64,000 nucleotides of DNA from an uncultured Saprospirales bacterium (lineage in GTDB: Bacteria; Bacteroidota; Bacteroidia; Chitinophagales; JADIYW01). Position numbers and translations under genes: made by a program. Under the pieces are notes generated by a model, which was not told where the DNA came from, made no database searches, and worked only from the letters and a program-made list of their open reading frames with translations. Positions within the stretch are counted from its first letter, which is position 1, and every line of letters begins with the position of its first letter. Where the stretch lies: positions 11,376 through 75,375 of the forward strand of contig CALLKF010000116.1 in assembly GCA_938008535.1 (NCBI GenBank), in the 5' to 3' direction. Positions 18,002 through 34,158 of the stretch are shown here, piece after piece.

Positions 18002-18544
18002 TCAATAATAAGGAGCCATGAATACATAAACTAATACACCTGAAATAGCAACATATAACCACAATGGGAAAGTAAATTTTGCCCATTTTTTATGTAAAAC
18101 AAAATTATTCTGAAATGCAAACGAAAATGTTTTTAGAACAAAAGGCAAGACAATTGTAGATAGAATGATATGTGATATCAGAATGAAAAAATAAACATAT
18201 CGGATTTTTCCAACACCTAAAAACTTACTGTCTTCTGCGTTTAAAGTATGATAAATAACATACGATGTTAAAAATACACAAGACAAAATCAATGCACTCA
18301 ACATCGCAAATCGATGTGCGTTTGATTTTTTATTTTTAATAAAAAACAACCCTAGAAGTAAGCAAATAGTTGTACCTGAGTTTACAAACGCATTAAATTT
18401 TGGAAAGAAAGATAAATTTACAGTGCTAGTAATTTCTGGTGGTGCAATTTTTAGCATAGCTATCACTAAAGCTGGTACAGCAATCGAAATAACTGCAATA
18501 ACTATATTGATTGTTTTTGTAGGAGTATATTTTAGAAATGACAT
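18002..18544 (-). CDS. DUF420-family membrane protein
   Basis: 180 aa with about 4-5 TM segments; its position after SCO in the oxidase cluster is typical of DUF420. Confidence 0.65.
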   Translation of the reverse strand: MSFLKYTPTKTINIVIAVISIAVPALVIAMLKIAPPEITSTVNLSFFPKFNAFVNSGTTICLLLGLFFIKNKKSNAHRFAMLSALILSCVFLTSYVIYHTLNAEDSKFLGVGKIRYVYFFILISHIILSTIVLPFVLKTFSFAFQNNFVLHKKWAKFTFPLWLYVAISGVLVYVFMAPYY

Positions 18545-18588
18545 AGGAATATTTTTATAGAAGTGAAAATGTAAAAACAGTTAATCAA

Positions 18589-19311
18589 CTATTTTGTTTT
18601 CACTTTCATGGGAACATTATAGCTGGCCAACAATACTTTTACTGCATCCATTAACTGTTTAACTTTTAAAGAATCAGTACCGTTATAAAATCCACGAATT
18701 TGCCCTTCTTTATCTATGATAGCAATTTTCTCGTCATGAATAAAATCTGTCGGTCCACCATCACCTTGTGTTGCAGTAATAAAATAGCCATTGCGTGCCA
18801 TTTTATAAATTTCCATCTTATCACCAGTTAATAAAAACCAATTTTTAGAACTGATATTATTATCAACAGCGTATTGAAATAATTGTTTTACAGAATCTGT
18901 TTCAGGATCTACTGTATGTGATAAAATTTGAACGTCTGGTTCATCATTAAACTCTTCTTGCACTTTTTTCATATTTTTATGCATATCAATACAAATGGTC
19001 TTACAAGTTGTAAAAAAGAAATCTACCAGTAAAATTTTACCACGCACACTATCTTTAGTAATTGTATCGCCTAATTGATTTATAAATTTGAAATCTGGAA
19101 TATGGAAATATGCTGTATCTACAAACTTCCTTCCTTTTGAATCTTCATTTTCAAAAGGACTTCTAGGTCCATAAATAGGTAAAACATGCTGCGTATCGAG
19201 CTTAGGTGCATCTTTATGTAAACGCATAAAGACCAACAAAAAAATTACTGGAAAAACAAACAAAAGTAGAATGGATAAAAAAAACGGTCTGTTATTTTTG
19301 GAAGAATTCAT
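18589..19311 (-). CDS. SCO-family copper chaperone / thioredoxin-fold protein
   Basis: N-terminal TM anchor, a CKTIC (CxxxC) motif and a conserved downstream His (SHTVDPETD). Confidence 0.8.
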   Translation of the reverse strand: MNSSKNNRPFFLSILLLFVFPVIFLLVFMRLHKDAPKLDTQHVLPIYGPRSPFENEDSKGRKFVDTAYFHIPDFKFINQLGDTITKDSVRGKILLVDFFFTTCKTICIDMHKNMKKVQEEFNDEPDVQILSHTVDPETDSVKQLFQYAVDNNISSKNWFLLTGDKMEIYKMARNGYFITATQGDGGPTDFIHDEKIAIIDKEGQIRGFYNGTDSLKVKQLMDAVKVLLASYNVPMKVKTK

Positions 19312-19329
19312 TAGTATTTAATTACTAGA

Positions 19330-19662
19330 TTACTTTATTAGGTAAAGTAATTTGTGTAAATAATTACCTTCAACACCAAATGCAATAATTGCCCAAAGAA
19401 GAAAAAATAAAGGCAATCCAAGTGACAACATAAAAACACGTTTTTCATATTTTAGGTGCATAAATTCACCAATAATAAAAAATGCTTTTGCAATAGATGC
19501 GATTGCATAAAATGGATTCATAATCCACTTTGGCAAATGTGGTCCGAGTATCAAAGCTGCTGCCACTTCTACTACTGTAACTATTGATAAAATAACAGTT
19601 ACTTTCCAAACACCAGCTACTTGTGCTTTATACTCTTCTTCTGTTAATTGATGATCGCTCAT
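19330..19662 (-). CDS. Cytochrome c oxidase subunit IV-family protein
   Basis: 110 aa with 3 TM segments, lying immediately downstream of the subunit III genes. Confidence 0.65.
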   Translation of the reverse strand: MSDHQLTEEEYKAQVAGVWKVTVILSIVTVVEVAAALILGPHLPKWIMNPFYAIASIAKAFFIIGEFMHLKYEKRVFMLSLGLPLFFLLWAIIAFGVEGNYLHKLLYLIK

Positions 19663-19710
19663 GATATATTTTAATTAGATTTTTATTGAATTGGTTATTA
19701 ATGAATTTTA

Positions 19711-20466
19711 TTACATTAAGTAAAAAGCTAAGAATACGAATACCCAAACTAAATCTACAAAGTGCCAGTACAAACCTAATTTTTCAATCATTTCATAGTG
19801 CCCACGTTTCTCAAAAGTACCATTAGCTGTTGCAAAGAAACCCCAAATATTTAAGCAAACACCAGTAAATACGTGGAATCCGTGAAAACCTGTGATACCA
19901 AAAAACAAAGCACCAAAAGCAACTGGACCAGGTGAAAACATAGGTTTTCCTTGTTCGTGTATATTCCAAAGTGTTGTTAAACCATCTTTACCTTCATAAA
20001 AAACATTATAAAACGGACGCATACCTTCAGCTAACAAATGTTGCCATTCCCAAGCTTGACAACCTAAAAATGCAGCACCACCTAAAATTCCCCAAAACAT
20101 CCAATACATTACACCATTTTTATTCATTCTATGTCCTTCTTGTACTGCACGTACAACAAAAACTGAACTCATAATCAAAATAAATGTCATGATGGAAACG
20201 AAACCCATTGGAATTTTATGGTGGCCCATAAAAGGCATTGCATTAAAAACATCATTTGGATTTGGCCACCATTTGTGCCCCAATCTTAAGCATGCATATG
20301 CTATTAAGAATGCTGAAAATGTAAATGCATCAGACAATAAGAAATACCACATCATGGTTTTTCCGTAGCTAATATTCATCGGTGACTTTTCACCACCTTC
20401 ACCATTATCAGGCGTTGGTAATTGATGTGCTGTATGATGCTCTTTTATTTCTAAAACTTCTGCCAT
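19711..20466 (-). CDS. Cytochrome c oxidase subunit III
   Basis: 251 aa polytopic protein with GFHGFHVFTGV and HFVDLVWVFVF motifs. Confidence 0.85.
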   Translation of the reverse strand: MAEVLEIKEHHTAHQLPTPDNGEGGEKSPMNISYGKTMMWYFLLSDAFTFSAFLIAYACLRLGHKWWPNPNDVFNAMPFMGHHKIPMGFVSIMTFILIMSSVFVVRAVQEGHRMNKNGVMYWMFWGILGGAAFLGCQAWEWQHLLAEGMRPFYNVFYEGKDGLTTLWNIHEQGKPMFSPGPVAFGALFFGITGFHGFHVFTGVCLNIWGFFATANGTFEKRGHYEMIEKLGLYWHFVDLVWVFVFLAFYLM

Positions 20467-20484
20467 TGGTTGAGCTTTATTCGA

Positions 20485-21120
20485 TTAATGATTTAAATTT
20501 AAAGATAGAAAAATAAATAAATACAACCACAACAAACCCATAAAATGCCAATACATAGACAATAGATCAGTTCTAATTGCAAATTTTCCTTTTTGTGAAT
20601 TTTCTAATTCTGAAATAATATCGTTGCTTGTTGGTTGACGTAACTTAAATAGCGAACGAGTAGTTGCGACTATCATGAAAAGTAATCCACAAAAAACATG
20701 TAATGCATGAAATGCTGTAATTACATAAAAGAATGGACCCGCTGGATTTGGATTATAGGATAAATAAATACCTTGATTTGTTAATTGAGTCCAACCTGTC
20801 ACTTGAAAAACACAAAATAATATACCTAAAAATGTAGTCGTAAATAATCCAGCTGCTGACATTATCTTATTTCCTTTTTTATTAGAAATATGTGCAACTA
20901 TTAGAGACATACTGCTTAACATTATCATTAAGGTTGAAACGTTGAAAATTGATGGCATTGTGAATGCTGACCACGCGCCACCTGCGCCTTTACGCACAAT
21001 AAATGCACTTGTAAAACCACCAAATGTCATCATAATAGAAACAATTGCCATCCACATAGTGAAACGTTGTGCACCTTGGTTGCCAAATTTTGTCTTATTA
21101 TATGTTACAGTCAAACTCAT
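20485..21120 (-). CDS. Cytochrome c oxidase subunit III-like protein (second copy)
   Basis: 211 aa with FHALHVFCGL and WHFMGLLWLYLF motifs. Its start overlaps the cyoE stop by 1 nt (TAATG). Confidence 0.75.
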   Translation of the reverse strand: MSLTVTYNKTKFGNQGAQRFTMWMAIVSIMMTFGGFTSAFIVRKGAGGAWSAFTMPSIFNVSTLMIMLSSMSLIVAHISNKKGNKIMSAAGLFTTTFLGILFCVFQVTGWTQLTNQGIYLSYNPNPAGPFFYVITAFHALHVFCGLLFMIVATTRSLFKLRQPTSNDIISELENSQKGKFAIRTDLLSMYWHFMGLLWLYLFIFLSLNLNH

Positions 21121-22025
21121 TAAATTTTATCTAATACTAATGCTAAAAAAACAACTGGCAAATAAATAAAGGAAGCAAACATAAGTTTTCTTGCACTTTT
21201 ATCTGACAAATCAGTTGCTAACTGAATACCTGCACTTAGAAAATATATTCCAGCAATTAAGGATACAATTAAAGAAGCAATTCCTGAAATATTTAATATA
21301 AATGGCAAAGCACTAACTGCTAATAAGCCAATTAAATATGGAATATTTTGCAGAGCTGTATTACGAGTTTTGCCTTCATTTGATGGCAATAAAAAATAGC
21401 CAGCTTTTTTATAGTCTTCATCTAATAACCATGCGATAGACCAAAAATGTGGTATTTGCCAAAAGAATTGAATAGTAAATAAAACAATACCAATGGTACC
21501 AATGGTACCAGAAGCAGCTGTGTAACCAATTAACAATGGAATAGAACCAGGAATCGCTCCGATAAATACTGAAACAGGACTTATTCTTTTAAATGGTGTG
21601 TATATGAAAGCGTACGAAATCAATGCTAATGCACCTAATAAACCACTTAAAGTATTAAAATAAAACGCTAAAATAAGAATACCACTTACACCAGTAATAC
21701 CTGCTACAATATATGCTTCAACTAGTTTCATTCTTCCAGCTGGTAATGGACGATTTTGTGTTCTTGTCATCAATTTATCTAAATCTTTTTCAATAATTTG
21801 ATTTACTGTATTAGAAGATGCAGTTACTAAAAATCCTCCGAGGAATAAAAAAAATACATTTGACCAAATTATTGCTGCATCTATTGTCAATAGATAAGAC
21901 ATAATAGCTGAAAAAACAACTAATAATGAAAGTCTTAACTTTGTCAATTCCATAATATCTTTCAACTTTAGTGAAAGAACTTTAAAGAAAGACAACTGAC
22001 TATTATTTACAACTTTTGTATTCAT
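21120..22025 (-). CDS. cyoE: Protoheme IX farnesyltransferase (heme O synthase)
   Basis: UbiA-family motifs (NQIIEKDLDKLMTRTQNRPLPAG) in a polytopic 301-aa protein. Confidence 0.9.
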   Translation of the reverse strand: MNTKVVNNSQLSFFKVLSLKLKDIMELTKLRLSLLVVFSAIMSYLLTIDAAIIWSNVFFLFLGGFLVTASSNTVNQIIEKDLDKLMTRTQNRPLPAGRMKLVEAYIVAGITGVSGILILAFYFNTLSGLLGALALISYAFIYTPFKRISPVSVFIGAIPGSIPLLIGYTAASGTIGTIGIVLFTIQFFWQIPHFWSIAWLLDEDYKKAGYFLLPSNEGKTRNTALQNIPYLIGLLAVSALPFILNISGIASLIVSLIAGIYFLSAGIQLATDLSDKSARKLMFASFIYLPVVFLALVLDKI

Positions 22026-22049
22026 TTTAGATAGTATACTTTTAATCTT

Positions 22050-23867
22050 TTAATGGTCTGCTTCTGTTTTTTCTTTATCTGTTAGCGGAACATTTTGTGG
22101 AATAAAGTCAGATTCGTTACCTGGTCTGCTATAATCGTATGCCCATCTGTGAACTTCTGGAATATCACCATGCCAATTACCGTGAATGCCTTCTACTGGT
22201 GAAGTCCATTCTAATGTATTTGCATTCCACGGATTTTGAGTTGATTTTTTACCTTTAAAAATACTCCAAAAGAAATTTACTAAAAATAAAAACTGAGCAA
22301 AAAACACTATAATAGCAGCAATACTAATTACTTTATTCATACCATTGAAAACTGCAAAAATTTCAAAGTTATTATTAGTATAATATCTACGTGGAACACC
22401 TGCTAACCCTTGGAAATGCATTGGCCAAAATATTAAATAAGAACCAACGAATGTAATTGCAAAATGTATATACGCAAGATTTGTGTTCATCATTCTTCCA
22501 AACATACGTGGAAACCAATGATAGATTCCTGCGAACATACCAAAGAATGCTGCAATACCCATTACAATATGGAAATGTGCTACTACAAAATAGGTGTCAT
22601 GCAATTGTATGTCAATTGTTGAATTACCTAACCAAATACCTGTTAAACCTCCTGAAATAAACATTGAAACAAACCCAACAGCAAAAATAAATGGTGGTGT
22701 AATATGTAAATTTCCTTTCCAGATAGTAGTAATCCAGTTAAATACTTTTACAGCAGAAGGAATTGCAATTAATAAGGTAAAAAATGTAAATACAGACCCT
22801 AAGAACGGATTAATACCTGCCATAAACATATGGTGAGCCCAAACAATGAAACCTAAAATTGTTATACCTAAGATAGAAAAAATCATTGCTTTGTAACCAA
22901 AGATTGGTTTACGAGCATGAACAGCTAGAATTTCGGAAACCATACCCATTGCTGGTAAAATAACGATATAAACTTCAGGATGTCCCAAGAACCAAAACAA
23001 ATGTTGAAATAAGATTGGCGAACCACCAGCATAAGGTTGAGGAACACCTCCAATTACTATATGTGATAAATAGAAACTTGTTCCTAATGTTCTATCGAAT
23101 ATAAGTAATACTACTCCTGAAACCAATACTGGGAACGATAAAATACCTATGATTGCAGTAAAGAAAAGAGCCCAAACAGTTAAAGGCATTTTAAATAAGC
23201 TCATACCTTTAGTACGCATATTTAAAATAGTTGAAACATAATTTAAACCGCCTAATAATGTAGAAACTACGAATAGAACCATCGCTAATAACCAAAGTGA
23301 CATACCATCACCAGAACCAGGTGATGTTTGAGGCAAAGCACTTAGTGGTGGATAAATTGTCCAACCTGCAGAAGCTGCACCTGTTGGTAAAAAGATAGAT
23401 GCAAACATAATAATACCTGAAATAACAAAGAACCAATAAGATAATGCATTCATTAAAGGAGAAGCCATATCACGTGCACCTATTTGCAATGGAATTAATA
23501 CGTTTGCGAATGTACCACTCAAACTAGCAGTTAATACAAAAAACACCATGATGGTACCATGCATAGTAATTAATGAATAGTATGCTTCAGGATTTAATTT
23601 TCCATCAGTGTACCATGCGCCAAACATTCTTTCTAAAAATGGAAAAGTTTCATCAGGCCAACCTAATTGTATACGAAATAAGACAGAAAATAAACCACCG
23701 ATTACTGCCCAAATCATTCCAGTAATCAAGAATTGTTTTCCAATAGTTTTGTGGTCTAAACTGAATATATATTTAGAAATAAAAGTTTCTGTATGATGAT
23801 GACCTCCGTCGTGACCATGTGCAGTTGTATGAGCATGTTGTTCGGTTACAGTATGTAAAGTTTCCAT
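22050..23867 (-). CDS. ctaD: Cytochrome c oxidase subunit I
   Basis: Heme-copper oxidase signature (WFLGHPEVYIVILP, WAHHMF, VVAHFHIVM); 605 aa. Confidence 0.95.
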   Translation of the reverse strand: METLHTVTEQHAHTTAHGHDGGHHHTETFISKYIFSLDHKTIGKQFLITGMIWAVIGGLFSVLFRIQLGWPDETFPFLERMFGAWYTDGKLNPEAYYSLITMHGTIMVFFVLTASLSGTFANVLIPLQIGARDMASPLMNALSYWFFVISGIIMFASIFLPTGAASAGWTIYPPLSALPQTSPGSGDGMSLWLLAMVLFVVSTLLGGLNYVSTILNMRTKGMSLFKMPLTVWALFFTAIIGILSFPVLVSGVVLLIFDRTLGTSFYLSHIVIGGVPQPYAGGSPILFQHLFWFLGHPEVYIVILPAMGMVSEILAVHARKPIFGYKAMIFSILGITILGFIVWAHHMFMAGINPFLGSVFTFFTLLIAIPSAVKVFNWITTIWKGNLHITPPFIFAVGFVSMFISGGLTGIWLGNSTIDIQLHDTYFVVAHFHIVMGIAAFFGMFAGIYHWFPRMFGRMMNTNLAYIHFAITFVGSYLIFWPMHFQGLAGVPRRYYTNNNFEIFAVFNGMNKVISIAAIIVFFAQFLFLVNFFWSIFKGKKSTQNPWNANTLEWTSPVEGIHGNWHGDIPEVHRWAYDYSRPGNESDFIPQNVPLTDKEKTEADH

Positions 23868-23898: not shown

Positions 23899-25425
23899 TT
23901 ATTTTTTTGTAACTCTGATATCAATTCTTCTATTTTGCTGACGACCTGCATCAGAATTATTAGAAGCAACTGGATATTGTTCGCCATAACCTTCTGATTT
24001 TAATCTTGAAGAAGCTATACCTAATTTTACCAATTCATTCATAACCATGCTTGCTCTATCAGCAGAAAGTTTTTGATTAGATTCTGGCTTACCTACATTA
24101 TCTGTGTATCCACCTAATTTAATTTCAACTGAAGGAAATGCTTTTAATATTTCTGCAACATTTTTTAATTGTTGCTGAGAAGATGGAATCAAAGTTGCTT
24201 TTCCATTTTCAAATAATAATCTATCAAAAGAAAACCATAGGTCTTTAGAAATAGCTTTATCACTTTTAATAAACTCAATCAACTTTTCTTCTACACCAGC
24301 TGCTTTTGCGCCTTCTAATTCAAACCCATTTGATAATTTTTGAGTGAAACCACTTACATTTTCGACACTAACTACAGGTTCGCCTTCTGCCACTTTACCA
24401 GCACTTTCTTGAGGAATAGAACTGCTATTTACTTTATAAGTTCCTTCATCCATTGCAGGTTTTACGACAGTTTGGTAATATGATTTTTGTTCATCAGACC
24501 ATTTTTGATATTCAGGTAATTCCAATACTCGAACTTTCTTTTGCATATTGTAATGACCAGAACCACATAATTTGTTACATGCTAACACATATTCATAATT
24601 TGGATTTTTAGTAATTACTTTCATCTCAGCAGAAGTGATAGTTGGTTTAAACCAAAATGATGTTGGCACACCTGGAACTGCATCCATCATTATACGCATT
24701 TGAGGTAAAAAGAAATCATGAATAACATCCAATGCTCCAATATTTGCATATACTGTTTTTCCTTTAGGTAAAACTAAATCATCAGCTATAAAATCATCAT
24801 GGCTCGCTGGATCATTCCAATCTATACCTAATTCGTTATCACCATTTACTAATGTAAAATCACGTTTTCCTAATTTTCCATCTTTACCAGGATAACGCAA
24901 AATCCATGCGAATTGTTTTCCTGTTACTTCAACTTCTACTACATCTCTAGGACGACCTTTAAATACATTAAAAATTGTGTACCATCTCCAAATACCTACA
25001 CCTATTAATACCGTCAAGACAATTGCTGGAATAACAGTCCAAACAACTTCTAAAGTGTTATTATGTGGATAGAAATATGCTTTTCTATCTGATTTGAAAT
25101 GATATTTGTATACAAACCAAAATAGAATTGCTTGTGTGATAACAAAAACTACTCCTGTAATGATTAATGTTACAGTGATTAATTGTTGAACCCAAACACC
25201 TTCTTGAGATGCTGGTTGAGGTAGAATCATATCTTTATAAAAATATGAGGATACTAATGAGTAAATTAATATTCCAAAACCTATAACAGACAAAAACAAA
25301 GCACCTTTACTGTGATCTTCCTGTTCACCAACTTTCAATTCCTTTATAAGGTCTGATGCTTTTCCTATCTGCACTACTACAATGTACAGCAATATAATCG
25401 TCAGAATTCCTAATAATATAGACAT
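23899..25425 (-). CDS. ctaC: Cytochrome c oxidase subunit II fused to a C-terminal OmpA-like domain
   Basis: CuA ligand pattern H236 ... C283-NKL-C287-GSG-H291-YN-M294. Residues ~397-508 read WFSFDRLLFENGKATL...LGGYTDNVG...LSADRA...NRRIDIRV, which is the OmpA C-terminal (peptidoglycan-binding) consensus. Confidence 0.85.
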   Translation of the reverse strand: MSILLGILTIILLYIVVVQIGKASDLIKELKVGEQEDHSKGALFLSVIGFGILIYSLVSSYFYKDMILPQPASQEGVWVQQLITVTLIITGVVFVITQAILFWFVYKYHFKSDRKAYFYPHNNTLEVVWTVIPAIVLTVLIGVGIWRWYTIFNVFKGRPRDVVEVEVTGKQFAWILRYPGKDGKLGKRDFTLVNGDNELGIDWNDPASHDDFIADDLVLPKGKTVYANIGALDVIHDFFLPQMRIMMDAVPGVPTSFWFKPTITSAEMKVITKNPNYEYVLACNKLCGSGHYNMQKKVRVLELPEYQKWSDEQKSYYQTVVKPAMDEGTYKVNSSSIPQESAGKVAEGEPVVSVENVSGFTQKLSNGFELEGAKAAGVEEKLIEFIKSDKAISKDLWFSFDRLLFENGKATLIPSSQQQLKNVAEILKAFPSVEIKLGGYTDNVGKPESNQKLSADRASMVMNELVKLGIASSRLKSEGYGEQYPVASNNSDAGRQQNRRIDIRVTKK

Positions 25426-25438
25426 GTTTCTTTAATTT

Positions 25439-26758
25439 TTAGATATGATGCTTATAACTTTCTTTTACATAAGGATGTGTACTTGATTCTAAATCTTTTA
25501 TTTTAGATAACATCGTGAGTACTAAGTAACCAAATATACTTCCAATCATTAATAATAAACCAATACTTACAATTCCAAAACCATCTTTAGGCAATAACAT
25601 TGGGCAATTCATTAAGAAAAACCATGCAAATTGTCCAAAAATAATAATAAATGCTGCAATTAATGTAGCTGTTCTACTTCTCTTAGAATTACGTTTCATT
25701 AGAATAAAGAAAGGTAAAACAAAATTGCAAATAATGGCAAAGTGGAACAAAAATCCATAGTTATCTGTGTTTCTTCTCAAACGAAAGAACTCAGTTTCTT
25801 CTGGAATATTTGCATACCAAATTAGCATGTATTGTGAAAAGAAAGTATACATCCAAAACACACTAATAGCAAACATTAATTTAGCAACATCGTGTTCATG
25901 ATTCACATTTACATTTGGCAAATAACCTTTGCTTTTTAAGAAATGTATAAGGATAATTACTATAGACAACATGGTTACAGCAGCACCAGCCATTGTGTTC
26001 CAAGTATACATTGTACTATACCAATGTGGTTGTATTGACATTGACCAATACCATGTTGCAAATGTATTTATTACGAATGAAATTACTACAATTGAAATAG
26101 CTGCAAATAATCTGCTTGATGAAAATAGTTTTAAAGATGGATTAGTATCCATTTCTGTTAAAGTTTTCCACCATTTATAAACAAGAAACACTGCAGAAAC
26201 AGCAATAACAATATTAAATGACCAAAACCAATTCATGCTTAAAAAATCGCCATGTTTAAGAGCTAATAATGCGTCAAAACGTGGATCTTTTGGATCGTAT
26301 AAATAGTCGTGTGTCCATTCAAAAATATCATGTTTAAAGAATATAAACATAGTGAATAGACAAATTAAGAAAAATACAACTGTGGTAGAAATAGCCAGCG
26401 GGATTTTTTGGAATGAAACTTGCCAGCCACCCCAAGCTATGTTAGTTGCAGATAAAAAAAACAGTGCTGCAATAGCAATATAAAATCCAAAATAAAACAA
26501 ACTATAAATATTTGCTTTTACTAATAAACCTACTGAAGCTTCAGCATGATGTCCATGACCAGCTTCTGCCTCATGTGTATCAGTTGATTCATTGTTGCTA
26601 CCTTTAGCAACTATTTCCGTTTTAGCAACGCTAGTGTGTTCTTCTTTTGTTTTACTGCTACCTGAAAAGAATATGCCTAATACCAATAACAGAACTCCAA
26701 TTCCGAAAGATATAAACAGCTTTTTCTGAGTGCTCGAATCAAAAACGTATGTATTCAT
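25439..26758 (-). CDS. actF: Alternative Complex III subunit ActF (polytopic membrane subunit)
   Basis: 439 aa with about 10 TM segments; its position after ActE matches canonical actABCDEF order. Confidence 0.7.
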   Translation of the reverse strand: MNTYVFDSSTQKKLFISFGIGVLLLVLGIFFSGSSKTKEEHTSVAKTEIVAKGSNNESTDTHEAEAGHGHHAEASVGLLVKANIYSLFYFGFYIAIAALFFLSATNIAWGGWQVSFQKIPLAISTTVVFFLICLFTMFIFFKHDIFEWTHDYLYDPKDPRFDALLALKHGDFLSMNWFWSFNIVIAVSAVFLVYKWWKTLTEMDTNPSLKLFSSSRLFAAISIVVISFVINTFATWYWSMSIQPHWYSTMYTWNTMAGAAVTMLSIVIILIHFLKSKGYLPNVNVNHEHDVAKLMFAISVFWMYTFFSQYMLIWYANIPEETEFFRLRRNTDNYGFLFHFAIICNFVLPFFILMKRNSKRSRTATLIAAFIIIFGQFAWFFLMNCPMLLPKDGFGIVSIGLLLMIGSIFGYLVLTMLSKIKDLESSTHPYVKESYKHHI

Positions 26759-26771
26759 TGCGAGAGTCTTT

Positions 26772-27368
26772 TTATTTTGTTTTTGTTGAATCTGTTTTCA
26801 CTGTTTCTGCAACAGGTTTGCTTGCTTCTTGAAGAGTTTTTACATAACTCAACACTAACCATCTTTCTCTATGGTTTAACTGACTTGCATAAGAACCCAT
26901 CATATTTTTACCATACATTAAGGTATGATATCTTTGACCATCTGATAATGACAATAATGGTTCATTAAGATAAGATGGTGGTGGTGGAAATTTGTCAATT
27001 TGAACTAAATGACCTTGTCCATCGCCTTTATCACCATGACATATAGCACAATTAACTGTAAATAAATGTTTTCCTTCAACGCCAATTTCATCTTTTGTAA
27101 AAACAAAAGGGTTTGTAATTAAAGTAGCAGCTTTTATGTATTCAGTATCAGCTAATGGATATAAATATTTCCCACGAGCAATACTTCCTGCAGGTGCTAA
27201 CTGGTTTGTTTTACCGTCTTTATATATAGGGTTTGCAGATCCTGCTTCGTAAGGAATTGCATTCACCATATCAGCCATGTATTGTCTTCCAGGTTGTTGA
27301 GAACTTCTTATGCAAGAAGAAAACCCAATAACAACTGTCAATAGTATGATTAAATATTTTTTTAACAT
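26772..27368 (-). CDS. actE: Alternative Complex III monoheme cytochrome c lipoprotein ActE
   Basis: Lipobox LTVVIGFSSC and a single CAICHG heme motif. The start was moved to the ATG at 27368, 4 nt after the ActD stop. Confidence 0.75.
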   Translation of the reverse strand: MLKKYLIILLTVVIGFSSCIRSSQQPGRQYMADMVNAIPYEAGSANPIYKDGKTNQLAPAGSIARGKYLYPLADTEYIKAATLITNPFVFTKDEIGVEGKHLFTVNCAICHGDKGDGQGHLVQIDKFPPPPSYLNEPLLSLSDGQRYHTLMYGKNMMGSYASQLNHRERWLVLSYVKTLQEASKPVAETVKTDSTKTK

Positions 27369-27372
27369 GATA

Positions 27373-27903
27373 TTATACTTCTTTTTGATAAACTTCAATC
27401 GCACCTTCATTTTTTAATAATTCAGAAACTGCATTAATATAATTTGAATCTTTGTTTTTGTCTAACTCAAATGTCATAGCAAACAAATGATCTGTTGTTC
27501 TTTCATCAATAATTACAGGTTTTTTTCCAGGCCACAATTTGCATAAATAATAGAAAGAAACGGTCATTCCAATAGCAGCAAAAAGTACAGTATGCTCAAA
27601 AGTGATAGGAACATAAGCTAACAAACCCCAATTAGGCTTACCTCCAAAATCTGTAGGATAGTTAAATTTATTAATGAAAGTTATCATGCTTAGCGCAACT
27701 GTTAATCCAGTTGCACCAAAGAAGAAACCTGCCGTATGTATTCGTGTTGGTTCTAAACCCAATTTGTGTTCTAAACCATGTACTGGAAATGGTGTATAAA
27801 CATCTGTGATATCATAACCAGCATGACGAATATGTTCTACAGCATGCAACAAAACGTCGTCATCATCGAACATTCCTACTAAATATTTTTTTGCTTCGCT
27901 CAT
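27373..27903 (-). CDS. actD: Alternative Complex III subunit ActD (DUF3341)
   Basis: 176 aa with an N-terminal soluble part and two TM segments; gene order supports the call. Confidence 0.7.
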   Translation of the reverse strand: MSEAKKYLVGMFDDDDVLLHAVEHIRHAGYDITDVYTPFPVHGLEHKLGLEPTRIHTAGFFFGATGLTVALSMITFINKFNYPTDFGGKPNWGLLAYVPITFEHTVLFAAIGMTVSFYYLCKLWPGKKPVIIDERTTDHLFAMTFELDKNKDSNYINAVSELLKNEGAIEVYQKEV

Positions 27904-27931
27904 AATTATTACTAATAATGATTATAAATTT

Positions 27932-29371
27932 TTAATCCCAATTTTTTGAATCCACACTCACATTATCATATACTTTCTGGTCTTTTAATTCATCTAATTG
28001 ACCTTGTCTATATTGATTTCCAGAAACTTTCAAGATTGATTTAACTTCAGCAATTGCAATTGCTGGAAAAAATCTACAGAACATTAAAAATAGAGTCATA
28101 AATAAACCAATTGTTCCTACAAAAATGCCAATCTCTACCCAAGATGGTGAATAATACACCCAACTAGAAGGTAAATAATCTCTATGTAATGAAGTTACGA
28201 TAATTACAAAGCGTTCGAACCACATACCAATATTTATTAGGATAGACATAGCAAATGTAACACCTATATTTCTTCTTAATTTTCTAAACCAAAATACTTG
28301 AGGAGAAACTAAATTGCAAAACATCATTCCAAAATATGACCACCAATATGGACCCATTGCTCTGTTTGCAAATGCGTAACTTTCATACATGTTTCCTGAA
28401 TACCATGCTGTAAAAAGCTCTGTTAAGTAAGCTATACCAACCATAGTACCTGTCAGTAACATTACCTTGTTCATTGACTCGATATGTGCTAAAGTGATGT
28501 AATCTTTTAAATCCATTACATGACGAGCCACTAACATTAATGTTAGAACCATTGCAAATCCTGAAAATATCGCACCTGCAACGAAATAAGGAGGCATGAT
28601 AGTGGTGTGCCAACCTGGAACAATAGAAGTTGCAAAGTCAAAAGATACGATAGTATGTACAGATAAAACCAATGGAGTAGATAAACCTGCTAAAATTAAA
28701 GATAATGATTCCCAACGTTCCCAATGTTTTGCTGTACCAATCCATCCAAATGATAAGAAATTATAGAAATTCCATCTTCCTTTAGTTTTAGATTGATCTC
28801 TAATGGTAGCAAAATCTGGAACTAAACCAGTGTACCAAAACAATAAAGAAACAGTAAAATAAGTTGAAATCGCAAAAACGTCCCAAAGTAATGGTGATGT
28901 AAAGTTTACCCAAAGTGGGCCACGTGTATTTGGATATGGAAAAATGAAAAATGCATCCCAAACACGTCCCATATGGAAAATTGGAAATTGACCTGCGCAA
29001 ATTACCGCAAAGATGGTCATAGCTTCTGCTGCACGGTTTACACCAGTACGCCATTTTTGACGAAATAATAATAAAATTGCTGAAATTAAAGTACCAGCGT
29101 GACCAATACCAATCCACCAAACGAAATTGGTGATGTCCCAAGCCCAGCCAACTGTTTTATTAGCGCCCCAAGTTCCGATGCCGAAACAAACTTCCCAAGT
29201 GATACAGAAGACAAACAAACCGGCAACTGCTGCAGAAACAGAAGTCCAAAACAACCATTTAGGTTGAATTTTACCAGTAGTTGGTCTAACGATATCGTTG
29301 GTAATATCTTTATACGTTTTATTACCGTTAATTAACGGTTCGCGTAGTGGTGATTCAAAATGACTTGCCAT
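27932..29371 (-). CDS. actC: Alternative Complex III quinol-binding membrane subunit ActC (NrfD/PsrC-like)
   Basis: 479-aa polytopic protein resembling the NrfD family, lying downstream of the Mo-pterin-like/FeS subunit. Confidence 0.85.
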   Translation of the reverse strand: MASHFESPLREPLINGNKTYKDITNDIVRPTTGKIQPKWLFWTSVSAAVAGLFVFCITWEVCFGIGTWGANKTVGWAWDITNFVWWIGIGHAGTLISAILLLFRQKWRTGVNRAAEAMTIFAVICAGQFPIFHMGRVWDAFFIFPYPNTRGPLWVNFTSPLLWDVFAISTYFTVSLLFWYTGLVPDFATIRDQSKTKGRWNFYNFLSFGWIGTAKHWERWESLSLILAGLSTPLVLSVHTIVSFDFATSIVPGWHTTIMPPYFVAGAIFSGFAMVLTLMLVARHVMDLKDYITLAHIESMNKVMLLTGTMVGIAYLTELFTAWYSGNMYESYAFANRAMGPYWWSYFGMMFCNLVSPQVFWFRKLRRNIGVTFAMSILINIGMWFERFVIIVTSLHRDYLPSSWVYYSPSWVEIGIFVGTIGLFMTLFLMFCRFFPAIAIAEVKSILKVSGNQYRQGQLDELKDQKVYDNVSVDSKNWD

Positions 29372-29406
29372 TATATCTTACTTTACTACTTTAATTATTT
29401 AATTTA

Positions 29407-32400
29407 TTACGCATTGGGTTTATTAATAAAAAACTCAGCTGGTTCTTCGTCTTTATTTCTAACCTTTACTTGATATCCAACTGCTGATAAGAAATGCTGT
29501 TCTTCTAGAACATAGTAGTTTCTACCACTATTTTCAAATGTTTTTGCTACAACACTTTCTTTATTATTTTGATCACCGAATGTAATGGCATTTGTTGGAC
29601 ATGCTGTTTGACAAGCAGTTTTCACATCACCATCTTTTAATGTTCTATTTTCTTTTTTTGCAACTAATTTTCCTTCTTGTATTCGTTGAACACAGAATGA
29701 ACATTTTTCAATTACACCACGAGAACGAGTTACTACATCTGGATTTAATACCATTCTAGTTAAATCTTCAAACATGTAAGATTGAGATTCTGTATCAGTA
29801 AATGAGCGTTTTCCATCATTAAATTTACCAAAACTATCAGCACCTTGATAATCTAACCAATTGAAACGTCTTACTTTATATGGACAGTTATTAGCACAAT
29901 ATCTTGTACCAATACATCTATTATAAGCCATTTGATTTAATCCTTCTGAACTGTGGTTAGTTGCATTTACAGGACAAACGTTTTCACAAGGTGCATTATT
30001 ACAATGTTGACACATCATTGGTTGAAATGAAACATCTGGATTATCTGGATTTCCGTTATAATAACGGTCAATACGCATCCATTGCATTTCTTGTGAACGA
30101 TATACTTGTCTTTTACCAACAACAGGCACATTATTTTCAATACTACATGAAACAACACATGAACCACAGCCAATACATGCATTTAAATCGACAACCATAC
30201 CCCAATGATGACCTTGTTTATAGTCATTTGGTTTATAACCATCATATAATGAATGTGAAAATTTCTCTTTAATTTCTTTACGATCTAAGTTACCTGCATG
30301 TTCATCTTTTTTGTAATCTGCAAGTGTAGTTTCTTTAACAATTTCGCCTCTGTATTTCATTGAACGTCCTGGAAGATTGTTATCTTCCATTAACGTATGA
30401 TAAGTTTGGTTTAATCCAAGTTCGTATGTTTTACTAATAAATTCAATTGTAGCTCCATCAATGTTATATGATGTTATTCCATTTGAAGATTTTAAGAATG
30501 GATAAACATTTTTTCCAACTAAATCACCAGCTTTTCCAGCTTTTTCGCGACCATAACCTAAAGCTATTGCTAAAGTACCTGCAGCTTGGCCAAATTGAAC
30601 AACAACAGGTAATTCTAAAGATTTTCCATTAATCGTAACCTTTGCCACAGCTACATTCTTATCAGAAGGCATGCTGTCAATTCCTTTTTCTTTTGCAAAT
30701 GCATATGGAATACAAACATAATTGTCCCAAGTAACTTTAGCAACTGGGTCTGGCATTTCTTGTAAAAAAGGATTGTTTGCTAAACTTCCGTCACCAATAG
30801 CTACTTTTTCATAGAACAAAACTTCCATTCCTTTAGCTGGATTAGCATCTGCTGAAACACCTGCAATAGATGCACTTACGTTTGCTGAGGCACCACTACC
30901 AGCAGTAACATTACCAAAGAAACCTTGTTGTACAGCAGTTTGGTAATTTGCACCTGTCATAGAAGTAATTTCATTCTGAACTACAGTTGCGATTGGTGTA
31001 TTATCACCTAACCAACTAGCTAGAGATTCTGCAGTTTGACGCGTATCAAATAATGGTGAAATTGTAGGTTGAACAAAACCATAAAATCCAGTTTTTGGAG
31101 ATATAATGTCCCAAGATTCTAAATAATGAGAATTTGGTGCAATATATTGGCAATATTGTGCTGATTCGTCTGGTCTGTCAGCAGTTGAAACTGATAACTC
31201 TGCAGATTTAATTGCATTTTTAAATATTTCTGAATACGCTGTATTGTAAACAGGATTAGTACCAATTAAAATGATTGCTTTATATGAACCTGCTTTTAAA
31301 TCATTTGCTAAAGTTGCTAATGATTCATCATTACCAGTTTTTAAGTTGTAAGTATTGGCAGTATCTATAACAGTACCATAGTTACCTAATGTACCATTGA
31401 TTGCATTTACTAATAATTGTATTTGAAGATCATTTGTACTAGAGATTACAACTGATTTACCTTTTGCTGACAATAATTCTTTCGCAACTTTTGCAATTCC
31501 TTCGTTTGCATCTTTTCCACTAAGGTTTTTTGTACCACTAATAGAACCACCTACAGCTGCTAATAAGTTAATTAATGCTTGCTTTTCCTCAGATGGTTTA
31601 ATAGGATATCTATAATCTGCAGTTGCACCAGTAATAGTCATAGTTGACTGAAATTGGTGATGGCGAGACATTTTTGGATTTTCTTTTGTTGGAATTCTAT
31701 TTGCGATATACTTTTTCGCATTTTCTATATTAGAGATTCCAGTACCTAAAAAATCAGTATTAAATCCAACAATAACATCTGCTTTATCAAAGTTAATTGA
31801 CGGTATGATTGGTGATCCTAAACTAATTTGGTTTGCTTTACGTACAGCATATTGTGAAATGGCATCATAACTAACCACAGTTGTAGTTGGATATTTAGCT
31901 GAAAATTTATCGATTGCTTTTTTAGTAATAACAGATGATAATGAACCAGTAACCAATGCAATTTTACCACCACTTTTAGAAATTGAATCTAATTTTTGGG
32001 TAATCTCTGCATCTATTGTTTTCCAATCTGCATCTTTGTTGTTTTTTCTAGGTTTGTGTAAACGAGTTACATCGTATAAACTTAAAACCGATGCCTGCAT
32101 TCTAGCATTGGTTCCACCAAGCGTTAAAGGTGATTCATTATTTCCTTCAATTTTAATAGGTCGACCTTCACGAGTTTTAACTAATAAATTTGCAAAATCA
32201 GAACCATCGCAATAGGTAGTAGCAAAATACTCTGCAACACCTGGTACAATTTCTGGCACTGCATTTCTTAAATCAAATGTATAAGGAATTGCGTTTTTAA
32301 CAGGAATTTTGCATGCAGAAGCTAAAGCTGCAACAGAAACACTAAAACCCATTGCTTTTAAAAAATCACGACGTGAAGGTTCTACTTCATTGTTTTCTTC

Positions 32401-32502
32401 TATAGCTGTTGTGTCTACATTAAATTCTTTAGATGCTTGCTCCAAGTATGTTGGAGTTTCGTTCATTTCATCTAAGCTTGACCAATATTTTTTGTTACTC
32501 AT
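29407..32502 (-). CDS. actB: Alternative Complex III subunit ActB (Tat-exported molybdopterin-oxidoreductase-like + 4Fe-4S ferredoxin domains)
   Basis: Twin-arginine signal SRRDFLKAMGF and C-terminal Cys clusters CIGCGSCVVSC, CQHCNNAPCENVCP, CIGTRYCANNCP; 1031 aa. Confidence 0.9.
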   Translation of the reverse strand: MSNKKYWSSLDEMNETPTYLEQASKEFNVDTTAIEENNEVEPSRRDFLKAMGFSVSVAALASACKIPVKNAIPYTFDLRNAVPEIVPGVAEYFATTYCDGSDFANLLVKTREGRPIKIEGNNESPLTLGGTNARMQASVLSLYDVTRLHKPRKNNKDADWKTIDAEITQKLDSISKSGGKIALVTGSLSSVITKKAIDKFSAKYPTTTVVSYDAISQYAVRKANQISLGSPIIPSINFDKADVIVGFNTDFLGTGISNIENAKKYIANRIPTKENPKMSRHHQFQSTMTITGATADYRYPIKPSEEKQALINLLAAVGGSISGTKNLSGKDANEGIAKVAKELLSAKGKSVVISSTNDLQIQLLVNAINGTLGNYGTVIDTANTYNLKTGNDESLATLANDLKAGSYKAIILIGTNPVYNTAYSEIFKNAIKSAELSVSTADRPDESAQYCQYIAPNSHYLESWDIISPKTGFYGFVQPTISPLFDTRQTAESLASWLGDNTPIATVVQNEITSMTGANYQTAVQQGFFGNVTAGSGASANVSASIAGVSADANPAKGMEVLFYEKVAIGDGSLANNPFLQEMPDPVAKVTWDNYVCIPYAFAKEKGIDSMPSDKNVAVAKVTINGKSLELPVVVQFGQAAGTLAIALGYGREKAGKAGDLVGKNVYPFLKSSNGITSYNIDGATIEFISKTYELGLNQTYHTLMEDNNLPGRSMKYRGEIVKETTLADYKKDEHAGNLDRKEIKEKFSHSLYDGYKPNDYKQGHHWGMVVDLNACIGCGSCVVSCSIENNVPVVGKRQVYRSQEMQWMRIDRYYNGNPDNPDVSFQPMMCQHCNNAPCENVCPVNATNHSSEGLNQMAYNRCIGTRYCANNCPYKVRRFNWLDYQGADSFGKFNDGKRSFTDTESQSYMFEDLTRMVLNPDVVTRSRGVIEKCSFCVQRIQEGKLVAKKENRTLKDGDVKTACQTACPTNAITFGDQNNKESVVAKTFENSGRNYYVLEEQHFLSAVGYQVKVRNKDEEPAEFFINKPNA

Positions 32503-32572
32503 TTATTTAATGTTATAACGTTTTTTATTTTCATTTTCAAAATATAATACACCATTTAGTGTATCTACACTA

Positions 32573-33847
32573 TTAATAATGACATTTTTGACATTCTGTT
32601 CCACCAATATCAGCAACAGTAACTTTTGCTTTTGTTCCTTTTTTCAATTCATCTTGATATTTCTGGAATATTGAATAATATTTATTTTCAGCAAATTTAA
32701 CTTCTGTTTGACGGTGGCAATTAATACACCAACCCATTGAAAGCGGTGCAAATTGTTTCATCACTTCATATTCTTCAACTTTTCCATGGCAAGTTTGGCA
32801 TTTAATTCCACCTACTTTAACATGTTGTGAGTGATTAAAATAAACGTGGTCTGGTAAATTATGAATTTTAATCCATTCGAAATTCTTAGGTGCTCTAACA
32901 AATTTTGATTGATCTGGATCCCAACCTTGTGCCGCATAGATTTTGGCAATTTCTTCTGTGCCATATTTTGGCCCTTGTTTTACATATTTATGGCAGTTCA
33001 TACAAATTTGTAATCCTGGAATACTTGCATGTTTACTTTTTTCTACACTAGTATGGCAATATTGACATTCAATTTGATTTTGACCAACGTGCAATGCATG
33101 TGAGAATTTTATTGGTTGTTCTGGAGCATATCCTTGTGAGCGACCTAAATCAATTGCACCATTAAAAATATTGAATACCAAAAGTATTGAACCAATAAAC
33201 ATAAGTGTTTTGTATGTTTTTTTACTGAAAACTTTTTGTACTATCGTTTTTTCTTCAACAACTTCACCAGCTTTTTCACGAACAACTTTATCAAGCTTTG
33301 AAGTTATATTCCATAATAGTATTGCAAGTACAGCTAAAAACCCAAATAAAGCCCAAAGTAACCAACTAGAACTATCAGCAGTATTTGTTTCAGCACCAGC
33401 AGTTGGTGCAGGTGTTGTAGCAACTGGAGCAGCAACACCAGGATTTTTGATGTACAATAAAATACTTAAAATCTGATCCTTGTTTAAGGTAGGAAAAGAT
33501 TGCATAACAGATTTGTTATACTCATTAAAAATCTTATTGGCATATGGATTGCCACTTGCTATTAATTTACCTGAGTTTTGTACCCAAGCAACAATTTTGT
33601 CTTCGCTTTCCCATCTGTCCCAAACTCCAGTTAAAGCAGGTCCTACTACTTTTTTGTCAATTGCATGACAAGCAGTACAGTTTGCTTTGAATAAAGCCAT
33701 ACCTTCTTTTGCTTTTGCAACACCATCCGCATCAGTTGCAGCTACATCAGGAACAGCTACAGCTGCGCTTGCATAGTTGGTAAAAGATAGGAATAGAATA
33801 ACTACTATTAGTTGACAGAGGATTTTCAATGATTTGCAATTATACAT
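32573..33847 (-). CDS. actA: Alternative Complex III multiheme cytochrome c ActA with extra N-terminal class-I-like cytochrome c domain
   Basis: Six CxxCH motifs (CTACH, CQYCH, CMNCH, CQTCH, CINCH, CQKCH). The start was moved to MYNCKSLK (ATG at 33847) ahead of the signal/anchor. Confidence 0.85.
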   Translation of the reverse strand: MYNCKSLKILCQLIVVILFLSFTNYASAAVAVPDVAATDADGVAKAKEGMALFKANCTACHAIDKKVVGPALTGVWDRWESEDKIVAWVQNSGKLIASGNPYANKIFNEYNKSVMQSFPTLNKDQILSILLYIKNPGVAAPVATTPAPTAGAETNTADSSSWLLWALFGFLAVLAILLWNITSKLDKVVREKAGEVVEEKTIVQKVFSKKTYKTLMFIGSILLVFNIFNGAIDLGRSQGYAPEQPIKFSHALHVGQNQIECQYCHTSVEKSKHASIPGLQICMNCHKYVKQGPKYGTEEIAKIYAAQGWDPDQSKFVRAPKNFEWIKIHNLPDHVYFNHSQHVKVGGIKCQTCHGKVEEYEVMKQFAPLSMGWCINCHRQTEVKFAENKYYSIFQKYQDELKKGTKAKVTVADIGGTECQKCHY

Positions 33848-34158
33848 TATACGTCTAATTTTCTCGGTGCAAATATAGTATTCAGTTGTTTTAATTTCAT
33901 GAAATGTGGAAAAAAGTTCTATTTGGAATAAGTCTAAACAATTCCTATTTTGTTGAAATTCAATCACATTTACAATATCGTTAAACATAAATTGTTAGAA
34001 TTTAATGCTGTCTTAACATTTCTTTAGGAAAATTTAAAATTATAAGGAACTTTTACACAAAAATGTGAGTTGGCAAATCATTTTTCTAATTTTGGTACGA
34101 TTTTTATGAAATTTATTTGAAACATTCATTTTTACTAATTCTAACTAAAATAAAACTT

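Follow-up and report, generated by a model that had tools for sequence, protein, structure and literature searches.

A cytochrome c oxidase subunit II with a C-terminal OmpA-like module in Bacteroidota, a candidate peptidoglycan tether of the aa3 oxidase

The locus described here raises the question of why the copper subunit of a terminal oxidase should end in a domain of the kind that binds the cell wall. The window, that is, the whole stretch of DNA analysed, comprises 64,000 nucleotides from an uncultured Saprospirales bacterium (GTDB lineage Chitinophagales; JADIYW01; assembly GCA_938008535.1, contig CALLKF010000116.1, positions 11,376 to 75,375). It carries, at 23899..25425 on the minus strand, a gene for subunit II of an aa3-type cytochrome c oxidase (CoxII) that continues in frame into an OmpA-like module; we refer to it as coxII-OmpA. 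We suggest, with a probability of roughly 0.6, that its product is a functional CuA subunit II that tethers the aa3 oxidase to peptidoglycan. All features of the window given below lie on the minus strand.

A subunit II continued by an OmpA-like module

The gene is a single open reading frame (ORF) of 508 amino acids (aa) plus stop, with no internal stop codon. The Pfam scan detected COX2_TM at residues 68-140 (33.8 bits, cut-off 22.8), COX2 at residues 213-294 (27.1 bits, cut-off 22) and OmpA (PF00691) at residues 404-499 (76.2 bits, E 2.6e-21, cut-off 27.2). An earlier note on this DNA, made from the sequence without database searches, had placed an OmpA domain after the CuA domain and predicted the COX2 plus OmpA result, as was found. 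The span it gave (23899-24435) corresponds to approximately residues 331-508, the C-terminal extension, and all the peptide strings it quoted are present in the ORF. The NCBIfam model CoxB matched over residues 78-310, and the protein is a divergent member of the CoxII family, because its score against the CoxB equivalog (121.6 bits) is under the cut-off of 147.7. From approximately residue 380 onward many OmpA-like NCBIfam families matched (YiaD, YfiB, Pal, MotB, TssL).

Two known types of protein were considered and rejected. The MotB/MotD/MotY families matched only at approximately residues 378-508 and far under their cut-offs, and the N-terminal part is CoxII, excluding a MotB/PomB-type stator subunit. 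A caa3-type subunit II, which is a cytochrome c fusion, was ruled out, as the 508-aa protein contains no CxxCH motif anywhere and gave no cytochrome match in the Pfam scan.

The AlphaFold2 model, built with 67 homologues, has a mean predicted local distance difference test score (pLDDT) of 84. The canonical CoxII transmembrane hairpin (24970..25206, residues 74-152, with predicted helices 74-110 and 124-152; Pfam COX2_TM) is followed by the periplasmic CuA cupredoxin domain (24448..24939, residues 163-326), which was detected by Pfam COX2, by the AlphaFold2 model and by Foldseek matches to CoxII chains. A flexible linker of 34 residues rich in Ser, Glu, Ala and Val comes next (24346..24447, residues 327-360); its residues 335-358 have pLDDT below 50 and are predicted to be disordered, and its length among homologues varies from 12 to 45 residues. 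The module that follows (residues 361-508, 148 residues) is modelled with confidence (pLDDT 86-97) and consists of a pre-domain (24217..24345, residues 361-403, short strands and a helix at 378-387, LSNGFELEG...VEEKLIEFIKSDK, pLDDT 86-94) and of the OmpA-like peptidoglycan-binding core (23902..24216, residues 404-508), assigned by PF00691 (E 2.6e-21) and by fold match, in which helices and strands alternate in the model. Ahead of the hairpin two extra N-terminal helices are predicted (25240..25422, residues 2-62; helices 2-32 and 40-62), which make four in all with the hairpin and are kept in the consensus of the relatives.

The search of the model against PDB with Foldseek led from the first half to CoxII chains, 2YEV_B among them, and from the second half to 5wtp (root-mean-square deviation (rmsd) 1.1 A over 103 columns), OprF, PA0833 and YiaD, with no chain spanning both halves among the 50 best-ranked PDB matches. 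By sequence, the core matched 5wtp, YiaD, ArfA, OprF, Omp38, YfiB and MotB in PDB. Among its best solved relatives are the C-terminal domain of C. gingivalis OmpA (5WTP/5WTL; E 1.6e-20, 39% identity, rmsd 1.1 A) and the OmpA-like domain of A. baumannii (3TD3), which has the diaminopimelate-binding Asp/Arg pair in common with the CoxII module. Both belong to outer-membrane proteins and tether the outer membrane, whereas the CoxII module would act on the inner one.

The CuA ligands H236, C283, C287, H291 and M294 satisfy the pattern H...C-x3-C-x3-H-x2-M and are invariant in the 67 fused homologues. Equally invariant (67/67) in the module are D442 (24100..24102, motif GYTDNVG) and, 15 residues further on, R457 (24055..24057, motif LSADRA), which we take, from the motif and the 15-residue spacing and not from a printed 3TD3 alignment, to be the equivalents of Asp271 and Arg286 of A. 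baumannii OmpA. Asp271 and Arg286 of A. baumannii OmpA bind diaminopimelate (PMC5974059). The OmpA domain proposed by the earlier note is genuine, and its peptidoglycan-binding pair is intact.

The CuA loop itself (residues 283-287, 24565-24579) reads C-N-K-L-C where C-x-E-x-C is usual. C-N-K/Q-x-C was found in 70 of 121 relatives and characterises essentially the whole family, fused and unfused alike. The Glu with the side chain that ligates Mg/Mn at the interface of subunits I and II is lost from the loop, a backbone ligand still being possible, and CoxI retains its H-D motif despite this loss.

The same in-frame architecture is present in dozens of independent assemblies, at identities from 96% down to 37%, and its carriers include an isolate as well as genomes in a single contig. 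Clusters of approximately 490-540 aa with the same three Pfam domains number in the dozens in the large protein database and are named either "cytochrome c oxidase subunit 2" or only "OmpA family protein". A gene split was sought in the unfused relatives and rejected: coxI lies within approximately 30 bp of a coxII of 344-361 aa, a gap without a separate OmpA gene. The ratio of nonsynonymous to synonymous substitution rates (dN/dS), computed by region between the window gene and its two nearest relatives (dS 0.24-1.3), was 0.03-0.04 for the transmembrane and CuA part, 0.38-0.58 for the linker and 0.086-0.087 for the module. By these ratios the module is a domain under purifying selection, and the linker behaves as a spacer. 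The lost stop codon or assembly error that the earlier note had named as a possibility is ruled out by the conservation across assemblies and the purifying selection on the module, and coxII-OmpA is a genuine single polypeptide.

There is no second CoxII in the genome (3.87 Mb, 100% complete), in which the remaining matches are to OmpA domains only; because of this, the fused protein would have to be the working subunit II of the only aa3 oxidase of this genome.

One cassette, several carriers and three junction designs

The pre-domain and the OmpA core form a cassette that is not confined to oxidases, a sharing absent from the earlier note. When residues 360-508 were searched exhaustively against 1.84 billion representatives, 525 matches fell below 1e-30. 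All 19 of the intact best matches that were scanned are DUF937 proteins with the pre-domain and OmpA cassette at the C-terminus, 53-68% identical to the window's module. Module residues 1-149 align with them end to end, and the alignments to DUF937-OmpA and H+-PPase-OmpA proteins start at module residues 1-17. The module conforms to this cassette family, which is defined by the pre-domain motif L-x-x-G-x-x-L...G-x-E-x-K-L-x-x-F-I, followed by WFxFD...F-x-x-G-[KS]-[AT]-x-L and an OmpA core at the extreme C-terminus. The N-terminal DUF937 domain is absent from the CoxII fusion, the cassette alone being in common, and a COX2 part was detected in none of the 147 newly retrieved module matches. PF05359 (DUF748) was rejected as a separate domain of the homologues, since its hits are weak, stay below threshold and overlap the beginning of the OmpA core.

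The third carrier is the H+-translocating pyrophosphatase (H+-PPase), found to end in the cassette in one fragment and two full-length genes, whose cassettes are 58-64% identical to the window's module. The full-length genes, L098:379-3033(-) and L099:296-3031(-), encode 884 and 911 aa and come from other Bacteroidota lineages. With DUF937 proteins, H+-PPases and CoxII all ending in it, the cassette is a mobile unit that sits at the C-terminus of membrane proteins, and CoxII is one of at least three carriers. The DUF937-OmpA and H+-PPase-OmpA proteins of Bacteroidota have the C-terminal cassette in common with CoxII at 53-68% identity and differ from it in the N-terminal carrier; for neither of them was a characterised function found in those parts of the literature that the search could see.

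The window's own genome encodes a DUF937-cassette paralogue (L002:1492-2853(-), contig C54) of 453 aa, 40% identical to the CoxII module, with the pre-domain and a hydrophobic stretch ahead of the cassette. The CoxII module is nearer to the DUF937 proteins of other organisms (up to 68%) than to this paralogue. The pyrophosphatase of the same genome is split over two contig ends, neither of which is among the OmpA matches of the genome, so that it is seemingly unfused.

Most Saprospiraceae have the fusion; in the window's family it is scattered, and outside these groups it is rare. Of 33 sampled genomes of the window's GTDB genus, 12 carry it; in 19 CoxII is unfused and 323-360 aa long, and 2 are fragments. 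The rest of the order contributes a second genus of the window's family, a single genome of family f2 and two genera of family f15. Of 201 Saprospiraceae genomes covered by a search centred on a Membranihabitans genome, at least 130, or about 65%, have the full-length fused gene, and approximately 20 of the listed genomes are unfused. The order-level frequency of approximately 5% is an undercount, as the distant fusions of Saprospiraceae were aligned over no more than their CoxII part (for instance, the 519-aa frame of G387). The carriers with names are Chitinophagales metagenome-assembled genomes (MAGs), many Saprospiraceae MAGs, the isolate Membranihabitans marinus CZ-AZ5 and one Lewinella MAG. 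Among 401 genomes sampled across the phylum, mostly of high quality, just two have the fusion, both from the window's genus: the genome that the window comes from and a relative.

These counts answer the survey that the earlier note had proposed: the fusion is common in Saprospiraceae, yet it is not the phylum-wide form. The novelty claimed there stands in part. We found no description of a CoxII-OmpA fusion in the literature searched, most subscription journals being outside its reach; the architecture is not rare, as the Saprospiraceae and genus counts demonstrate, and it was already in the databases. The fusion is widespread there, in hundreds of public genomes, and yet apparently undescribed.

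The connection between the CuA domain and the OmpA core has been made in at least three ways. The type 1 junction, found in the window's family and its relatives, is a disordered linker of 12-45 residues with the cassette. In type 2, of Saprospiraceae, no disordered linker is present, and a confidently predicted helix of 19 residues leads into the OmpA core (AlphaFold2); the core is 36-49% identical to that of the window, with the alignment beginning at module residue 33. The diaminopimelate-binding Asp/Arg pair and its motif TD..G....N..LS..RA are invariant in both types. Type 3, with a CarboxypepD_reg spacer between CuA and OmpA, was found in one "Cytophagales" MAG, the only one of 13 genomes in its family to have such a gene, and is clearly a separate event; the gene, L083:5869-7563(+), is one ORF of 564 aa that lies between actF and coxI.

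A tree built from the CoxII part (121 rows) requires 8 changes of the fused state, and 6 or more of these are backed by well-supported branches. The module tree (213 rows) is poorly resolved and gives 7 changes, of which well-supported branches account for at least 2; the type 2 modules form a clade of their own with support of 97-100. The three junction designs argue for repeated selection of the CoxII-OmpA combination.

The putative tether and its alternatives

In the known topology of subunit II the CuA domain is periplasmic, and the OmpA module is predicted to be periplasmic because it follows this domain. The earlier note had placed it there, at the position that cytochrome c occupies in caa3 oxidases, and the order of domains with the established topology agrees with that placement. 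The cassette also ends other membrane proteins, among them the H+-PPase, whose C-terminus faces the non-cytoplasmic side in the plant and Thermotoga pyrophosphatase structures. The reading we favour is that the module ties the oxidase non-covalently to the sacculus, since the diaminopimelate-binding pair is invariant. The cassette would have been acquired from the family that is normally C-terminal on DUF937 proteins, and the OmpA core would bind the peptide stem of peptidoglycan via Asp442 and Arg457. The linker and the height of the CuA domain would let the core reach the sacculus: a linker of approximately 34 residues, if extended, spans up to approximately 12 nm beyond the CuA domain of approximately 4 nm, which is comparable with the inner-membrane-to-peptidoglycan distances of other Gram-negatives. 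The oxidase would then be tied to the wall and held in place instead of diffusing freely. The binding to peptidoglycan, the immobilisation and any benefit are what we infer from the sequence.

Flavobacterium johnsoniae forms a supercomplex of alternative complex III (ACIII) and the aa3 oxidase (EMD-7447; PMC8552683, PMC8361435), and it has the act-cox gene organisation and the phylum in common with the window. The papers on this supercomplex and the supercomplex review do not mention an OmpA-like domain or a peptidoglycan contact on subunit II. If the supercomplex forms in the window's organism as well, the whole ACIII-aa3 assembly would be tethered.

The nearest known protein in architecture is subunit II of the caa3 oxidase (IIc, Thermus thermophilus, 2YEV chain B), a CuA subunit that likewise bears an extra globular domain at its periplasmic C-terminus. 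There the added domain is a haem c for electron entry, while the OmpA-like addition in the window would be structural and not redox. The nearest in principle are the tethers of MotB/PomB, the long form of TssL, and YiaD, in which a membrane-anchored, linker-borne periplasmic OmpA-like domain must also reach peptidoglycan. Their anchors are single-pass or lipid and the MotB tether transmits force, whereas the anchor in the window is a subunit of a redox enzyme that is not known to have a mechanical role.

Bacterial respiratory complexes are generally treated as freely diffusing, and a terminal oxidase tied to the wall, if true, would be a new way to organise a respiratory chain. The tie would be conserved in most Saprospiraceae, many of them public MAGs, and in parts of Chitinophagales. 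Bacteroidota are not known to have Braun's lipoprotein, and, with H+-pyrophosphatase and DUF937 proteins bearing the cassette as well, a general system that staples the inner membrane to the wall may exist in this phylum. On the practical side, the label "OmpA family protein" on many subunit II genes hides the oxidase in metabolic reconstructions.

Several observations weigh against the tether. The module is dispensable, as approximately 19 of the 33 genomes of the genus have a CoxII of 345 aa with nothing in its place. One relative (P0012, 361 aa, found in two samples), 88% identical and nested among the fused sequences, has dropped the module and retained the linker, which runs to approximately residue 353 before a stop, with the next gene 28 bp on. 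The linker of the full-length fusion could be cleaved in the cell, the linker length needed is judged from envelope dimensions of other bacteria, and the benefit of immobilising an oxidase is only presumed. The approximately unbiased (AU) test on 52 rows does not reject a grouping in which all CoxII modules fall to the same side of a branch (p 0.575); the independent origin of the Saprospiraceae type is argued from junction anatomy only, because this test keeps a single origin. The losses being frequent, the tether is accessory and not essential to catalysis.

The strongest alternative also invokes peptidoglycan binding, in the service of the envelope and not of the oxidase: any abundant and stable inner-membrane protein, be it a DUF937 protein, an H+-PPase or CoxII, would be a foot that stitches the inner membrane to the sacculus and sets the periplasmic spacing. 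The cassette occurs on three unrelated carriers, mostly DUF937 proteins, and is frequently lost from CoxII without replacement. The carrier also looks interchangeable, because no cassette-type CoxII fusion was seen in the genomes with the H+-PPase fusion and the window's own pyrophosphatase has no cassette match. Set against this, CoxII received an OmpA core through at least three junction designs, and in most Saprospiraceae the fusion is fixed, suggesting a role specific to the oxidase. We consider the envelope role possible, though rather unlikely.

The interchangeable carriers favour the envelope role, and the repeated choice of CoxII favours immobilisation of the proton pump as the benefit. 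In a wider generalisation, Bacteroidota may repeatedly graft peptidoglycan binders onto primary ion pumps, and so fix the sources of the proton-motive force at set places of the sacculus; sources pinned in this way might supply neighbouring envelope machines that consume this force, such as the gliding/type IX secretion system motor and TonB systems, and the bioenergetic membrane would be organised in space. This proposal draws on the aa3 oxidase, with its three or more junction designs, and on the H+-pyrophosphatase. We regard it as speculative and rather doubtful.

Improbable, in our opinion, is a role apart from peptidoglycan, in which the module would be a docking or regulatory cap near CuA, with ActE/ActA or a soluble donor as possible partners, or would be released by cleavage of the linker. 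The Saprospiraceae connector, a helix of 19 residues and not a disordered linker, might keep the domain near CuA, and OmpA-like domains commonly dimerise, that of PA0833 being a dimer in solution (PMC5974059). Nevertheless, the invariance of the diaminopimelate-binding pair and the surrounding motif in types 1 and 2 speaks against such a role, and the disordered, fast-evolving linker of type 1 (34 residues in the window) ill suits a fixed docking surface.

The module as a neutral passenger, a tolerated chance fusion with no function in the oxidase context, would fit the patchy distribution, the repeated loss within one genus, the changes of state on the CoxII tree and the decayed second copy of one genome (described below). 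It is very improbable in view of the dN/dS of 0.09 for the module at dS 0.24-1.3, the retention of the module from 96% down to 37% identity and as the majority state of a large family, and the recurrence of different junction designs.

An artefact, be it a lost stop codon or a chimeric assembly, that joins coxII to a separate OmpA gene can be dismissed almost entirely, given the same frame in many independent assemblies (single-contig genomes and the isolate included), the unfused relatives without such a gene between coxII and coxI, and the selection on the module.

Operon context and further observations

The coxII-OmpA gene lies between actF and coxI, 13 bp from the stop of actF and 31 bp from the start of coxI. 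Upstream in the same act-cox operon are the actABCDEF genes of ACIII (25439..33988, minus strand), identified by Pfam: ActA by multihaem cytochromes, ActB by Molybdopterin and Fer4, ActC by NrfD, ActD, and ActE by Cytochrom_C, with ActF, which has no Pfam match, named from its position. Downstream (18002..23867, minus strand) ORFs and Pfam indicate coxI, ctaB, two subunit III-like genes, coxIV, SCO1 and DUF420. In ActA (32573-33988, minus strand) a class I cytochrome c domain (Cytochrom_C, residues 93-182) precedes the multihaem part of the c7/c3 type.

In a close relative, whose main copy is 96% identical to that of the window, a second fused coxII copy is located at a contig end (G003:C44:326700-328088, locus L097) and contains several TGA/TAA stops, as a decaying duplicate. 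Open frames of 957-991 aa around coxII in G030:C17, G208:C3, G334:C1 and G368:C207 suggest coxII and coxI run together. A contig of 5.6 kb binned as Thermoanaerobaculia (Acidobacteriota; L016, JAKLJF010000357.1) carries a fused coxII of the Saprospiraceae type, 54% identical to that of Membranihabitans, and is probably misbinned.

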